A model generated the notes under the pieces. The model was not told the origin of the DNA. It saw only the letters and a list, made by a program, of their open reading frames with translations, and made no database searches. From the NCBI GenBank assembly GCA_011839185.1, contig GCA_011839185.1_3918.1: a DNA stretch of 64,000 nt; one strand, written 5' to 3'. This DNA is from a phage. A program made the position numbers and the translations under genes. Positions 33,972 to 52,039 of this stretch are shown in pieces. Numbering within the stretch: position 1 is the stretch's first letter; each line of letters begins with the position of its first letter.

Positions 33972-33994
33972 TAAAAAAGGCTCCCGAAGGAGCC
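33972..33994 (-). terminator. rho-independent terminator downstream of the endolysin gene
   Basis: on the minus strand GGCTCC-TTCG-GGAGCC followed by TTTTTT. Confidence 0.6.
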
Positions 33995-34004
33995 TATGAA
34001 GATA

Positions 34005-34469
34005 TTACTTTGGATATACACTGTCAAGATAAATGTCAGCTTCCATTCTACGTCTGTTTTTCAGACCGTTTGAAGTGACCTTCTTACCTTTGACTGTAAC
34101 CTTGTTCCACCACTGCATAGCTTCTGCACAACCTACCTTATTACCAGCATTGTGGCGCTTGATAAATGTGGAATCCTGCATAGCTGTGATACCGATGTTG
34201 TATGTTTCACTTACAAGTGCATCGAACTCATTCTGAGTAGTTGGAACCTTGATAGCTTTGTTCACTGCTGCAACAAACTTCTCAACATCCGCGAGAAGAT
34301 ACTGTTCAGCTTGTTCAGCGGTGATTTTCATTCCCATCTTAACAGGTTTTCCGTCAATACGGATTGTACCATACCCGATTGTTGGGATTCCGGCAGAGTC
34401 TTCGTAAGCCTCTAACTCCAGACCTTCGAAGAACTTAATAGCTTCTAAACCTTTTCTTGAGAGTTGCAT
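34005..34469 (-). CDS. endolysin, phage lysozyme (glycoside hydrolase family 24 type)
   Basis: 154 aa; LEAYEDSAGIPTIGYG and NEFDALVSETYNIG motifs typical of T4/P22-type lysozymes. Confidence 0.85.
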   Translation of the reverse strand: MQLSRKGLEAIKFFEGLELEAYEDSAGIPTIGYGTIRIDGKPVKMGMKITAEQAEQYLLADVEKFVAAVNKAIKVPTTQNEFDALVSETYNIGITAMQDSTFIKRHNAGNKVGCAEAMQWWNKVTVKGKKVTSNGLKNRRRMEADIYLDSVYPK

Positions 34470-35353
34470 TATGCCTCCCCTGCTGGGTTAACAGTAACTG
34501 TTGCAGCATTAGACGTTACAGAACCACCTGCACCAGTAACTACACAGGTGTAGCTTCCTGCATCAGCAGCGGTTGCACCTTCTTTGGTGTAAGTTGCAGT
34601 AGTTGCATCGAGGATGTCTTCCTCACCTTTCTTCCATTGGTAACCTGTCGCACCTGTTGCCACAACATTCAGCGTTAAGGTCTCACCTTCAGTGATTTCT
34701 TGATTTGCTGGCTGTTGAGTGATTACTGGAAGTGCATTCACAGTAACTGTTGCTGCATCTGAGGTAACACTTGTTCCACCCTCTCCAGATACAACACAAG
34801 TGTATGAACCAGCGTCAGAAGGTGCTACTGACTGTTTTGTGTAAGTTGCAGAATTGGCACTAGGGATGTCCTCACCATCCTTTTTCCATTGATATCCAGT
34901 GGCATTAGTTGCAATAACGCTTAGGGTAAGTGTACCCCCTTCATTTACTGTTTGATTGGTTGGTTGCTGAGTGATTGATGGTGGTGTGATGACATCTTTC
35001 AACTTAGCATTCAACATTGAGAACGGCTTAACTCTTGCCAACCATTCACAGTAAATTGTGTCAACATCTTTACCATTGATGATTGCATACTGCAAATCCA
35101 TGAAGAAATCAGCAGTTCTCATCTGTGCACCAACACTGTAAAGCAATTCATCACTAAATGGAACTTTGTAGTCTGGTTTGTAGTCAAACTTCTCAACTTC
35201 TGCAATATCAGCTTCAGGCCAATATGAACTATAGGTAAGTGGTAAAATAGCCTCTTGATATGTTCTAAAATCATATCTCTTACCAGCCTTTACGTTTGCA
35301 ATGAAGCCCTTCACAAACTCTTTAAAGTCTGGGTAAGTCTTTGCTTTAATCAT
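34469..35353 (-). CDS. protein with two tandem C-terminal Ig-like domains
   Basis: 294 aa; duplicated ~85-aa segment each with DAGSYTCVV and GYQWKK motifs; N-terminal ~100 aa paralogous to the upstream gene. Confidence 0.6.
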   Translation of the reverse strand: MIKAKTYPDFKEFVKGFIANVKAGKRYDFRTYQEAILPLTYSSYWPEADIAEVEKFDYKPDYKVPFSDELLYSVGAQMRTADFFMDLQYAIINGKDVDTIYCEWLARVKPFSMLNAKLKDVITPPSITQQPTNQTVNEGGTLTLSVIATNATGYQWKKDGEDIPSANSATYTKQSVAPSDAGSYTCVVSGEGGTSVTSDAATVTVNALPVITQQPANQEITEGETLTLNVVATGATGYQWKKGEEDILDATTATYTKEGATAADAGSYTCVVTGAGGSVTSNAATVTVNPAGEA

Positions 35354-35721
35354 TTCTTTTTAGCCTCTAAATGTGCGTTTAGTCTAAAATAACCTTTGTG
35401 GTGTGGAGATACATCACCAACAACAATGCCTTTAACCTTATAACCTTTACCAATTACATACTGAATATCCATAAGGAATCTCCCAAGACCAACAATATGG
35501 AACATTGGATATAATAGGTTCTCAGAGTCTGGAATATTGATTTCAGGTTTGTAGGTGTGTTGTTTGCTTGTTGGTGTAATATCTTCTTCAGGCCATTTAC
35601 TGAGTCTCCATGTCAAAGGTGTTGGGATAACATCATTAAGGTTGTACCTTTCACCATTTTGCACGGAATTGATATAGGATTGTAGGAAGCAATAAAAGTC
35701 TTTTGCACTCTTAGCTTTCAT
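35350..35721 (-). CDS. hypothetical protein, paralog of the N-terminal domain of the Ig-like protein
   Basis: 123 aa; shared YKP, LLY and FLMD(I/L)QY(V/A)I segments with 34469..35353. Confidence 0.5.
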   Translation of the reverse strand: MKAKSAKDFYCFLQSYINSVQNGERYNLNDVIPTPLTWRLSKWPEEDITPTSKQHTYKPEINIPDSENLLYPMFHIVGLGRFLMDIQYVIGKGYKVKGIVVGDVSPHHKGYFRLNAHLEAKKK

Positions 35722-35768
35722 TAAATATCCTTATAAATAGTTAAAGGGGCTGATGCCCCTATTCACAC

Positions 35769-36359
35769 TTAAGCTTTGGTCTTAAGTAGGTTTTTAAGTT
35801 TTTTAAGATTCATACTCTCATCAAACTTAAAACCAAATCCATTGACATAATCAATGAACTCGGATTTCTTACTGAGTGACAATGCGTAACTCATATCGAA
35901 GTTCTTACTTGTTTCTGCGTCTGGACTAGAGTTCACATCAAATGAAATTTCTGTAGGTTCTTGCTTACTTTTTCTCATATTATCAACCAACAAACATGTA
36001 TAGTTTGCTGGATAGAAGTTTACACTACCATCAACGTAGCTGTACTTATTATTATGGATAAGGTTTGAAAATACCTTAAGAAATGTTTCTGAGTCGTGGC
36101 AAACAAGTTTGAATTGGCTGCTCTCTCCAAGCGCAACTAATGAGTACGGACTTTCACTATCAAAGTCATAATTTGGATTCGATGGCGTCACTGTTACACG
36201 CATCAAGTTATTAGCGATAGTCTTCTGTTTAAAAGAATTTTGAACATAGTGAAGACCTCTATCACACTGATTGACTAGCTCTTTAAGTAGGTCATTTGCA
36301 TATGGTGAATTAATTGATACAGAGCCATCACTATTGTAATTAAAACTTACTGTTAACAT
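35769..36359 (-). CDS. hypothetical protein
   Basis: ORF track 196 aa. Confidence 0.5.
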   Translation of the reverse strand: MLTVSFNYNSDGSVSINSPYANDLLKELVNQCDRGLHYVQNSFKQKTIANNLMRVTVTPSNPNYDFDSESPYSLVALGESSQFKLVCHDSETFLKVFSNLIHNNKYSYVDGSVNFYPANYTCLLVDNMRKSKQEPTEISFDVNSSPDAETSKNFDMSYALSLSKKSEFIDYVNGFGFKFDESMNLKKLKNLLKTKA

Positions 36360-37431: not shown

Positions 37432-38847
37432 ATGAGCGAATTATTTAAACATGCGCACCTTCATGCAGGTCGAACTGAAAATGGTGCTGTAAACCATACT
37501 TCATCAATGTCTGCTCTTGTAGACTTTTACAAAGCTGCTGGTTCAAGCCGTAGTAACGTAGAAATCTTACCAGACCTGTTCTACAAAGCTTTGCGTGAGG
37601 ATGTTGATGTTGCAGTTCGTATTTTGCTTCATATGCGAGATGTACGAGAAGGTATGGGTGAGCGTAAAGCCTTCAGAACTGTTTTGCTTCAAGCAATTGA
37701 AGATAAAGTTTTAGAGTCTACGCAGGTTCTTCGCATTATGGATAAGATTGCAGAACTTGGTCGTTTTGATGACTTCAAAATCTTCGTAGGTACTCGTTTC
37801 GAGACAGATGCCTTCAAACATTTAGAAGAAGCATTACTAGACCCTGCAACAGCAGGTTTGGCGGCTAAGTGGTTACCACGAGTCAAACCACGTCATAAGC
37901 AGTTTGTAAAACGTTTCTGCAAGTTTGCCAACTTGAGTGAGAAAGAGTACCGCACACTGTTGTCTGCACTATCTGATACAGTTGAGCAAAAAATCTCTGC
38001 TAATGAGTTTGGTAAGATTGACTACAGTAAGATTCCTTCACTTGCTGCTGCACGTTACCAAAAACTGTTTAACCGTAAAGATGGAGAGCGTTACAAAGCT
38101 TACATCGAGTCCTTATCAAAAGGTGAGGCTAAGATTAATGCTGGTGCTGTTTACCCATACGATGTGATTAAATCTGTCAAGCATGGTAATGCAGATGTTG
38201 CTAATGAGCAGTGGAAAGCACTACCAAACTGGATGGCAGAAGGTGAAAACATCTTGTGTATGTCTGATGTATCAAGTTCAATGTCTTGGGTGAATTTTGG
38301 CTCCATTACTGCTCTGGATATTGGTGTATCACTTGCCTTGTATGTAGCAGAACGCAATACAGGTTGCTTTAAGAATGAGTTGATGGTTTATTCAACAAAC
38401 CCTCACTTCATCGAACTGAGTGGTGATTTACGAAACCGTCATCGTCAGGTGATGCGACACGTTGAATATGGCTCAACTAACTTACAAGCAGCTTTTGACC
38501 GCATTCTTGAGACAGGCAAAAGAAACAACTTGACTCAGAAAGATATGCCAAGTAAGCTTATCATCTTCTCCGATATGGAGTTTAATCAGGTTGATGGGGC
38601 TAACGGTCGTACAAACTTTGAAGCAATTCAGAGTAAGTACAAAAAAGCTGGATATGAGATGCCACAACTGGTATTCTGGTACTTAGCAAACCGTAATGGT
38701 ACTTGCGAAGTATCTGTTAAGGATAACGGTGTAGCAATGGTATCAGGGTTCTCTCCAGCCACTTTAAAAGCTCTGCTTGGTGGTGAGAAGTTTGACCCAA
38801 TCAGTGTAATGCTCAAAGCAGTAATGATTGACCGTTATATCTGGTAA
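37432..38847 (+). CDS. vWA-domain protein with helical N-terminal domain (possible Ro60/Rsr-like or DUF2828-like)
   Basis: 471 aa; MIDAS-type DVSSSM at about residue 279 with downstream T and D residues; ~270-aa helical N-terminal region; directly upstream of the tRNA array. Confidence 0.6.
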   Translation: MSELFKHAHLHAGRTENGAVNHTSSMSALVDFYKAAGSSRSNVEILPDLFYKALREDVDVAVRILLHMRDVREGMGERKAFRTVLLQAIEDKVLESTQVLRIMDKIAELGRFDDFKIFVGTRFETDAFKHLEEALLDPATAGLAAKWLPRVKPRHKQFVKRFCKFANLSEKEYRTLLSALSDTVEQKISANEFGKIDYSKIPSLAAARYQKLFNRKDGERYKAYIESLSKGEAKINAGAVYPYDVIKSVKHGNADVANEQWKALPNWMAEGENILCMSDVSSSMSWVNFGSITALDIGVSLALYVAERNTGCFKNELMVYSTNPHFIELSGDLRNRHRQVMRHVEYGSTNLQAAFDRILETGKRNNLTQKDMPSKLIIFSDMEFNQVDGANGRTNFEAIQSKYKKAGYEMPQLVFWYLANRNGTCEVSVKDNGVAMVSGFSPATLKALLGGEKFDPISVMLKAVMIDRYIW

Positions 38848-50932: not shown

Positions 50933-52039
50933 ATGTTGACTAATTCTGAAAAAAGCAGATTTTTCCTTGCTGACCTGACTGGTGAAGTCCAGTCTATCCC
51001 AAATACTTATGGGTATATTTCCAACTTAGGTCTGTTCCGTTCAGCACCAATCACCCAAACTACTTTCCTTATGGACTTGACTGATTGGGATGTTAGCTTG
51101 CTTGATGCGGTAGACCGTGATAGCCGTAAAGCAGAGACTAGCGCACCTGAGCGTGTTCGTCAAATCAGCTTCCCAATGATGTACTTCAAAGAAGTTGAAA
51201 GCATCACTCCTGATGAAATTCAGGGTGTACGTCAGCCAGGCACTGCAAACGAACTGACTACTGAAGCTGTAGTACGTGCTAAGAAACTGATGAAGATTCG
51301 TACCAAGTTCGATATTACTCGTGAGTTCCTGTTTATGCAAGCTCTGAAGGGTAAAGTTGTTGATGCTCGTGGTACTCTGTATGCTGACCTGTACAAGCAG
51401 TTCGACGTTGAGAAGAAAACTGTTTACTTCGACCTTGACAACCCTAATGCTGACATCGACGCTTCTATTGAAGAACTGCGTATGCACATGGAAGACGAAG
51501 CTAAGACTGGCACTGTAATCAACGGTGAAGAAATTCACGTAGTTGTTGACCGTGTATTCTTCAGCAAGCTGACTAAACACCCTAAGATTCGTGACGCTTA
51601 TCTTGCACAGCAGACTCCGCTGGCTTGGCAACAGATTACTGGTTCTCTGAGAACTGGTGGTACTGACGGCGTTCAGGCTCACATGAACACTTTCTACTAC
51701 GGTGGTGTTAAGTTTGTCCAGTACAACGGTAAGTTCAAAGACAAGCGTGGTAAGGTTCACACTCTGGTGAGTATTGATAGTGTAGCAGCAACTGTTGGTG
51801 TAGGTCATGCTTTCCCTAACGTTTCTATGCTGGGTGAAGCAAACAACATCTTCGAAGTGGCATATGGTCCATGTCCTAAGATGGGTTATGCAAATACACT
51901 TGGTCAGGAACTGTACGTATTCGAATACGAAAAAGACCGTGACGAAGGTATTGACTTTGAAGCTCACTCTTACATGCTGCCATACTGCACACGTCCTCAG
52001 TTGCTGGTAGACGTTCGTTCTGACGCTAAACCAGACTAA
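50933..52039 (+). CDS. major capsid protein
   Basis: 368 aa; position after protease/scaffold; by position and size. Confidence 0.6.
   Translation: MLTNSEKSRFFLADLTGEVQSIPNTYGYISNLGLFRSAPITQTTFLMDLTDWDVSLLDAVDRDSRKAETSAPERVRQISFPMMYFKEVESITPDEIQGVRQPGTANELTTEAVVRAKKLMKIRTKFDITREFLFMQALKGKVVDARGTLYADLYKQFDVEKKTVYFDLDNPNADIDASIEELRMHMEDEAKTGTVINGEEIHVVVDRVFFSKLTKHPKIRDAYLAQQTPLAWQQITGSLRTGGTDGVQAHMNTFYYGGVKFVQYNGKFKDKRGKVHTLVSIDSVAATVGVGHAFPNVSMLGEANNIFEVAYGPCPKMGYANTLGQELYVFEYEKDRDEGIDFEAHSYMLPYCTRPQLLVDVRSDAKPD

Follow-up and report, generated by a model that had tools for sequence, protein, structure and literature searches.

A probable tandem gene pair built on one capsid-binding domain in a Felix O1-like phage: a hexamer-centre head decoration protein and its paralog without Ig-like modules

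An earlier note, made by a model from the letters of a 64,000-nucleotide stretch of phage DNA (NCBI GenBank assembly GCA_011839185.1, contig GCA_011839185.1_3918.1; hereafter the window), drew attention to two related genes next to the endolysin gene. We found that these genes are best explained, with a good degree of confidence, as a tandem pair that goes back to a single capsid-binding domain (CapBD), in which one member is the Hoc-like head decoration protein Hex-Dec and the other is a duplicate lacking immunoglobulin (Ig)-like modules. Both open reading frames (ORFs) are as described in the note, lying on the minus strand and encoding 123 amino acids (aa) at 35350..35721 and 294 aa at 34469..35353. 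The window comes from a Felixounavirus, a Felix O1-like myovirus, the DNA of the region being 95-97% identical to that of ~230 Felix O1-like myoviruses and the genes of the locus 93-100% identical to those of sequenced phages. In Felix O1 the counterparts of the two genes and of the endolysin gene are ORF37 (123 aa), ORF36 (encoding gp36, labelled 'tail protein') and ORF35, to which the window proteins are 96.7%, 92.9% and 98.1% identical, respectively. The relatedness of the two proteins was borne out by BLASTP (38% identity over 101 aa, E 3e-16) and by their PHROG families, phrog_4463 for the short protein and phrog_3995 for the long one (E 5.5e-171), which cross-match with E values of 4e-15 to 5e-17. 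Moreover, when 67 unique paralogs and 23 unique CapBDs were aligned together, the motifs from which the relationship had been read, YKP, LLY and F(L/F)MD(I/L)QY, proved invariant in both families.

To place the longer protein, we compared it with the sequences of the Protein Data Bank (PDB) using phmmer, and it matched 9ncf_S with an E value of 1e-246 and 9c2d_S with an E value of 2e-165, both alignments starting at residue 1. The entry 9NCF is the icosahedral capsid reconstruction of Escherichia phage Bas63 (Sci Adv 2025, PMC12609058), and 9C2D and 9C3A are icosahedral capsid reconstructions of Shigella phage Sf14 (Commun Biol 2025, PMC11821841). In each of them chain S is a Hoc-like decoration protein, named Hex-Dec in Bas63 (PMC12609058) and gp20 in Sf14 (PMC11821841), and each is orthologous to the 294-aa protein and nearly identical to it in the CapBD. 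According to these structures the CapBD is formed by the N-terminal ~118-122 residues and occupies, as a monomer, the centre of those hexamers of a T=9 head that lie next to pentamers, with 1-4 flexible Ig-like domains that point outward from the capsid and are unresolved in the maps (PMC12609058, PMC11821841). By cryo-electron microscopy (cryo-EM), Hex-Dec density was seen on the pentamer-proximal hexamers only, the other hexamers being without it (PMC12609058, PMC11821841); from the T=9 geometry one would expect 60 pentamer-adjacent hexamers and 20 on the 3-fold axes. Arg79 and Arg107 of Sf14 gp20 form salt bridges to Asp221 of three subunits of the major capsid protein (MCP), and the 3-fold hexamers are avoided because the geometry of Asp221 differs there (PMC11821841).

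All of these features that can be read from sequence were found in the window. The CapBD of the 294-aa protein (aa 1-122; 34988..35353, minus strand) aligns residue for residue with the modelled part of 9ncf_S and 9c2d_S, and it carries both R79 and R107, which are invariant in the 23 unique CapBDs. The MCP gene (368 aa; 50933..52039, plus strand), whose product begins with the same N-terminus as the Felix O1 gp58 sequence printed in PMC3185647, encodes Asp at residue 221. The CapBD is mildly acidic (isoelectric point, pI, 5.5) and strongly constrained, its ratio of nonsynonymous to synonymous substitution rates (dN/dS) being 0.04. Thus, judged by its sequence, the 294-aa protein is a member of the Hex-Dec/gp20 family of the Ounavirinae, having the CapBD, the R79/R107 pair together with D221 of the MCP, and the Ig modules. 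In the mechanism that we propose, which follows the published structures, the Hex-Dec CapBD would plug the centre of a pentamer-adjacent hexamer as a monomer and be held there by the Arg79/Arg107-Asp221 salt bridges, and two flexible I-set Ig modules would extend outward from the head.

Presence in virions at hexamer centres, which we predict for the window protein from its sequence, has been demonstrated for orthologues by cryo-EM of Bas63 and Sf14 and by mass spectrometry (MS). Sf14 gp20 was detected in particles by MS (PMC11821841), and as early as 2010 gp36 of Felix O1 (31.6 kDa) was identified with 14 peptides and 44% coverage in CsCl-purified virions, mislabelled as a tail protein (PMC3185647). 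These results overturn the proposal of the earlier note that the gene belongs to a non-structural block and that its product may target the cell envelope; the note had named beforehand detection as a virion component as the finding that would speak against it, and this is what orthologues provide, Felix O1 gp36 being 93% identical. The general rule cited in the same note, that Ig-like domains of phages usually decorate virions, holds for the 294-aa protein. We nevertheless considered the explanation that the Ig protein is non-structural, is made together with the endolysin, binds carbohydrate of the envelope and helps lysis. Glycan binding is within the reach of Ig-like domains, the gene and the lysozyme start share a TAATG, and the gene lies ~15 kb from the structural and morphogenesis genes, adjoining the endolysin. 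Against this stand the orthologues with CapBDs 93-99% identical, which have been resolved in place on the capsid (9NCF, 9C2D) and identified by MS in virions, the conservation of the anchoring residues and of their MCP partner in the window, and the finding that the gene order stays the same where the display domains are very different, a sign that the linkage is historical and does not reflect a function in lysis. A role at the envelope is therefore extremely improbable. A decoration gene distant from the structural module also has a precedent, as the authors of the Bas63 study placed theirs more than 10 kb outside it (PMC12609058).

The Ig-like part of the protein consists of two modules, module 1 (I-set/Ig_3; aa 123-207, 34733..34987, minus strand) and module 2 (aa 208-293, 34475..34732, minus strand). 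The two repeats noticed previously are identical at 57 of 82 positions, and their alignment score of 284 compares with 34 +/- 6 (maximum 57) in 500 shuffles. When the hidden Markov models of Ig families were searched, a check which the note had proposed, Ig_3 (83.3 bits, cut-off 30; E 1.8e-23 for the Ig region), Ig_2 (65.4 bits, cut-off 27) and I-set (60.1 bits, cut-off 23.7) of Pfam all matched above their gathering cut-offs, each in two stretches. Structure prediction likewise returned an Ig fold: the AlphaFold2 model of module 2 had a predicted local distance difference test score (pLDDT) of 95.2 and a template modelling (TM) score of 0.89 to an Ig C2/I-set domain, and its Foldseek matches include Ig domains of the capsid decoration proteins of phages N4 and Moo19. 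The DNA encoding the modules is indeed a diverged tandem duplication, with 67% identity and a period of ~249-255 nt; at this divergence the repeat was not found by Tandem Repeats Finder on 34300-35800.

Relatives of the protein differ in the number of modules. In 26 relatives fetched from viral contigs the Hex-Dec lengths were quantised to 210, 294, 377 and 461 aa, corresponding to 1-4 modules; we took the module statistics from these fetched loci, since a word-indexed search with the Hex-Dec CapBD gave almost only 1-Ig forms. Module 1 of the window is 93-96% identical to module 1 of 2-, 3- and 4-Ig homologues and is orthologous to the first module of the 1-4-Ig variants. Module 2 is orthologous to the last module of the 3- and 4-Ig variants, with 97% identity to module 4 of one 4-Ig homologue, whereas modules at different positions are only 64-74% alike. 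The modules are thus orthologous by position, and therefore the copy number changes by in-register gain or loss of internal modules; the units gained or lost would be 83-84 aa long, and in the window phage the first and last ones would have been retained. Variation in the number of Ig domains has been remarked on in print, and our result is in accord with that remark and makes it slightly more precise. For the first module dN/dS is 0.11. The outward role of the Ig modules may be adhesion or aggregation as in T4 Hoc, by analogy only, and could take the form of weak adhesion to surfaces, mucus or other particles.

Comparison with known decoration proteins delimits the family. The window protein resembles Bas63 Hex-Dec and Sf14 gp20 in having R79 and R107 followed by I-set Ig modules and in being encoded beside the endolysin outside the structural module. 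Like T4 Hoc, Hex-Dec is present as one monomer per hexamer centre, carries a string of Ig-like domains on a small capsid-binding domain, is non-essential and forms an acidic fibre; unlike in Hoc, where the capsid-binding domain is C-terminal, the CapBD of Hex-Dec is N-terminal, and the Hoc-like matches in PHROG cover only aa 122-292. There was no Hoc chain among the fold matches of the paralog or the CapBD, and the authors of the Bas63 study describe the CapBD fold as topologically distinct (PMC12609058). The Ig domains of T5 pb10 are recognisably similar (5lxk_A, 8zvi_a, E 1.7e-12); the match is limited to the pb10 Ig domain, residues 80-159, the capsid-binding domains having no detected similarity, and neither sequence nor fold searches gave a pb10 match with the paralog or the CapBD. 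Hex-Dec therefore works like T4 Hoc and T5 pb10 and belongs to neither family, the likeness being confined to the Ig modules.

We then turned to the 123-aa protein (35350..35721, minus strand), the orthologue of Felix O1 ORF37. In the PDB sequence search it matched residues 3-117 of the solved Hex-Dec chains with an E value of 1e-11, and beyond Hex-Dec it had no match in Pfam, NCBIfam and PDB sequence searches. Its structure model matched the CapBDs of Sf14 and Bas63 only, which points to a CapBD fold in the paralog at the level of a predicted structure. Ig-like modules are absent, as the protein ends at residue 123, has no Pfam match and measures 122-124 aa in all 28 loci examined. The internal pseudo-C2 duplication reported for the CapBD of Bas63 was undetectable in sequence, half-versus-half scores staying within the shuffle range for both proteins. 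We propose that the 123-aa gene would be an old duplicate of the CapBD alone that has kept the fold.

The possibility that this gene is a functionless remnant of a duplication on its way out was weighed against its conservation. In favour of it, the paralog has been lost in 19 records of Felixounavirus phages with E. coli, Shigella or Salmonella as host, in which one common internal deletion has left a scar of ~190 nt in place of the paralog next to an intact Hex-Dec gene (for example REP8, OQ174507; L002 2306-2497), and one record carries a paralog/Hex-Dec chimera. The latter, SP3_SHan-2021 (MW296865; L003 2501-3379), has a single gene composed of paralog aa 1-~50 and Hex-Dec from aa ~51, joined at the microhomology WPE(E/A)DI; in the window the WPEEDI codons of the paralog (35575..35595, minus strand) and their Hex-Dec partner (35201-35221) form a direct repeat, D3, with 86% identity over 21 nt. 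The chimera is a singleton among 50,697 phage records and may be a recent recombinant or an assembly collapse. On the other side, the paralog is full-length in 233 of 253 phage records, and no frameshift or length change occurs in these 233 records or in the 67 unique sequences; its dN/dS is 0.12 at a median dS of 0.71 (that of the lysozyme is 0.07); it has persisted in Felixounavirus, in Mooglevirus and in a lineage with a lysozyme of 63% identity; and it is transcribed late in Felix O1. By these sequence data the paralog is under purifying selection and is a real functional gene, and selection, length and retention exclude a decaying pseudogene, so that we regard the remnant explanation as very unlikely. 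The 19 deletion records can be viewed as natural knock-outs of the paralog.

To see how far the family extends, we compared 1.84 billion representative proteins with a profile of the two paralog types; the family proved tiny, forming 12 clusters at 50% identity. Its distant members (P0099-P0103; L035-L039) are CapBDs fused to I-set, Big_2 or Big-like domains or to a disordered Lys/Ser-rich tail. In these lineages the order is a homologue of the 196-aa gene located upstream of the paralog in the window, then the CapBD fusion, then the lysozyme if the contig reaches it, and the stand-alone paralog is absent where context exists. An 87-kb metagenomic ounavirus, the one with the 63%-identical lysozyme, has the order 195-aa gene, paralog, Hex-Dec, lysozyme. 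Compared with the window, its paralog is 45% and its CapBD 58% identical, and paralog-CapBD cross-comparisons give 30-35%. Since paralogs resemble each other more than they resemble CapBDs, the duplication took place inside the Ounavirinae and is older than the split from the metagenomic ounavirus; and since the paralogs are less alike than the CapBDs, the paralog evolves faster than the anchor.

What the paralog has kept and what it has changed was apparent from the joint alignment. In it 36 columns are invariant and common to both families, mostly aromatic residues, Pro, Gly and Leu and including YKP, LLY and MD.QY, and in 42 others each family has a fixed residue of its own. The anchoring arginines are not kept: the R79 column is Gly in 66 of 67 paralogs and the R107 column is Gln or His in 63 of 67 (Gly78 and Gln/His107 in paralog numbering). 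The most conserved stretches of the paralog, residues 73-92 and 104-113, are those aligned to the capsid contacts of Hex-Dec, and in the contact segments 73-82 and 104-113 only one of ten residues each is common to the two proteins. Furthermore, the paralog is basic, with a pI of 9.3, a net charge of +5 and a KKK tail. Thus, the paralog keeps the fold and not the surface; it shares the predicted fold of the family and lacks the anchoring arginines, the Ig modules and a demonstrated presence in the virion.

Published expression and proteome data bear on where the paralog acts. By reverse transcription PCR of Felix O1, ORF36 and ORF37 both peak at 60 min, together with the portal, baseplate and fibre genes. 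The ORF37 product, gp37, is missing from the MS-based list of Felix O1 virion proteins, which does contain proteins of 9.7-13.7 kDa and was filtered at >=25% coverage (PMC3185647). The paralog yields 7 tryptic peptides of 8-28 aa, which include DFYCFLQSYINSVQNGER, YNLNDVIPTPLTWR, WPEEDITPTSK, FLMDIQYVIGK, GIVVGDVSPHHK and LNAHLEAK. In VpaE1 the orthologue ORF40c is still 'hypothetical', and unknown proteins of that phage detected by MS were renamed 'structural protein'. The paralog is unnamed in the virion lists of Sf14, Bas63 and VpaE1, the Sf14 table giving only proteins assigned a structural role, and it is unlisted in the Sf14 supplement. The proteome paper on wV8 deals with the tail fibre only. 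The structural papers on Bas63 and Sf14 do not mention it (PMC12609058, PMC11821841), and no description was found elsewhere in the literature.

One explanation on which these data bear directly gives the paralog a stable place on the head as a second decoration protein, one without Ig modules, which would plug the 20 hexamers at the icosahedral 3-fold axes that Hex-Dec leaves empty. Its fold is that of a hexamer-centre plug and it is expressed late with Hex-Dec; it is altered at exactly the Arg positions that read the geometry of Asp221, which differs at the 3-fold hexamers; its basic charge would suit the acidic hexamer centre; and three-fold averaging would weaken the density of a monomer. 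Nonetheless, it is missing from the Felix O1 MS list despite its detectable peptides and the identification of smaller proteins, ORF40c has not been renamed in VpaE1, and both cryo-EM papers report the other hexamers to be without density. We consider such a plug improbable; the replaced anchors, the reversed charge and the lack of virion detection argue, in addition, against a second copy of the same plug as Hex-Dec.

Alternatively, the paralog may have been neofunctionalised for something other than the capsid, for example a host protein, a nucleic acid or a defence system, with the CapBD surviving as a scaffold alone. The concentration of the 42 fixed differences in the former contact segments, the shift of the net charge to +5 with the KKK tail, the absence from virion lists, the dispensability in 19 isolates and the faster evolution compared with the CapBD are all compatible with this, and we hold it to be possible, short of likely. 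It is opposed by the lack of any Pfam, NCBIfam or non-Hex-Dec PDB match pointing to another activity and by the tight overlap with Hex-Dec and the shared timing, which the paralog keeps in every lineage possessing it. We lean slightly towards a capsid-directed accessory, given that constraint is strongest in the remodelled segments and that the gene has not parted from Hex-Dec in overlap or timing.

In this proposal the paralog, whose Felix O1 orthologue is transcribed late with Hex-Dec and which is basic, dispensable in culture and absent from published virion lists, may be a late intracellular accessory protein, a choice that we tentatively make over a second stable decoration protein. Its remodelled capsid-facing surface would bind transiently to a capsomer state or position free of Hex-Dec, for which the unexpanded procapsid and the 3-fold hexamers are candidates, and it would modulate decoration instead of adding a permanent decoration. 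Stated in its most specific form, the paralog would be a previously unrecognised capsid-directed factor, a CapBD retuned through replacement of the anchor arginines to a capsomer state or position closed to Hex-Dec, which we put forward as a speculative and rather unlikely possibility. The further suggestion that it fills such sites at low or transient occupancy, or controls where and when the Ig-bearing decoration loads, is speculation of the same doubtful order.

Several points weigh against our interpretation of the pair. The confidence of the paralog model is moderate (pLDDT 68.5, with residues 30-49 below 50), and the proposed role of the paralog is drawn from sequences, models and data on its orthologues. 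Its absence from virions is negative evidence, taken from filtered lists and symmetry-averaged maps, and is suggestive; a monomer on the icosahedral 3-fold hexamers would smear under symmetry averaging and could be missed. Nineteen isolates exist without the paralog, and therefore any role of it is non-essential in the laboratory. As regards Hex-Dec, the adhesion role of the Ig modules has the T4 Hoc analogy as its sole basis.

The layout of the locus suggests that the pair is expressed as a unit with the endolysin. The stop codon of the paralog and the start codon of Hex-Dec overlap in an ATGA (35350..35353, minus strand), which was present in 26 of 28 sequences examined, the other two having an 8-nt overlap, and such an arrangement suggests translational coupling of the two genes. 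The stop codon of Hex-Dec overlaps the start of the endolysin gene (phage lysozyme, 154 aa; 34005..34469, minus strand; PF00959, E 4.5e-41) by 1 nt in a TAATG, with GGGGAGG upstream. Of the earlier statement that the Ig-bearing gene is co-transcribed with the lysozyme, the adjacency was thus verified, and co-transcription of paralog, Hex-Dec and lysozyme is what the layout would imply. The three genes are bracketed by a strong rho-independent terminator after the lysozyme (33978..33995, minus strand; AGGCTCCttcgGGAGCCT + TTTTTATTTT), which is an annotated terminator in phages Barry and KhF2, and by a GC-rich hairpin upstream of the paralog.

This hairpin (GGGGC-loop-GCCCC followed by a T run; 35743..35760, minus strand) lies between the 196-aa gene and the paralog and was found in 30 of 30 sequences, with varying loops (ATCA, TGAT, TAAT, GAAA and others) and a few minor stem variants. 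Its fold alone is not significant (z -1.4), and its support comes from conservation with variable loops. The T run is longer in Mooglevirus-type genomes, and the equivalent spacer is present in L004-L030, L033 and L034. Probably the hairpin is a leaky terminator or a processing site separating middle- from late-expressed genes. No sigma-70-like site was found directly upstream of the paralog, and a promoter-like sequence of the spacer, CTATTTATAAGG, was rejected as a motif after giving 7 matches with <=2 mismatches where 8.7 were expected.

Upstream of the hairpin lies the 196-aa conserved neighbour (35769..36359, minus strand; Felix O1 ORF38, phrog_4034), homologues of which precede the CapBD-fusion gene in the distant lineages (L035 248-865; L036 4444-5001; L033 3368-3955; 28% identity, E 6e-21). 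At the C-terminus, ~29 aa are similar to the T4 Inh N-terminus, and in T4 inh is also directly upstream of hoc. That the gene is a homologue of T4 Inh, in parallel to the inh-hoc pair, was rejected, as the faint precomputed Pfam mark was not reproduced and BLASTP aligned a 29-aa motif alone, at opposite termini, with an E value of 9e-4; the likeness is, on the sequences compared, a shared motif and not homology. Just past the divergent intergenic region, on the opposite strand, is a 471-aa ORF (37432..38847, plus strand), whose counterpart in phage Barry is two separate coding sequences and whose corresponding gene in REP8 is annotated 'RNA-binding protein'. The gene of 491 aa at the corresponding position in L036 contains DUF2828 and DUF7788, a likeness that is positional, and beyond the 471-aa ORF the relatives have a large tRNA cluster. 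The record of 'Staphylococcus phage' SA1 (protein ACZ55588.1) is 99% identical to the Felix O1-like genes here, and its host label looks wrong.

In most Felix O1-like records Hex-Dec is labelled 'tail protein' or 'putative tail protein', and UniRef has automatically given the paralog the name 'Tail protein'. These labels go back to the one assigned in Felix O1 in 2010, and they are misleading for what are a head decoration protein and a copy of its capsid anchor. The Hex-Dec side of the pair is already known, having been explained by the two cryo-EM papers of 2025 and the proteome of 2010. The CapBD emerges from the comparison as a small modular anchor, found in nature with I-set, Big_2 or Big-like domains or a disordered tail attached, and this makes it of interest for pb10- or Hoc-type scaffolds in phage display and vaccines. 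What had not been described before, namely the identity of ORF37-type proteins as CapBD paralogs lacking Ig modules and having a specifically remodelled contact surface, along with the natural knock-outs and the chimera, constitutes a modest, testable lead. If it were true that the paralog is a retuned CapBD, it would offer a genetic explanation for the published and unexplained restriction of Hex-Dec to the 60 pentamer-adjacent hexamers.

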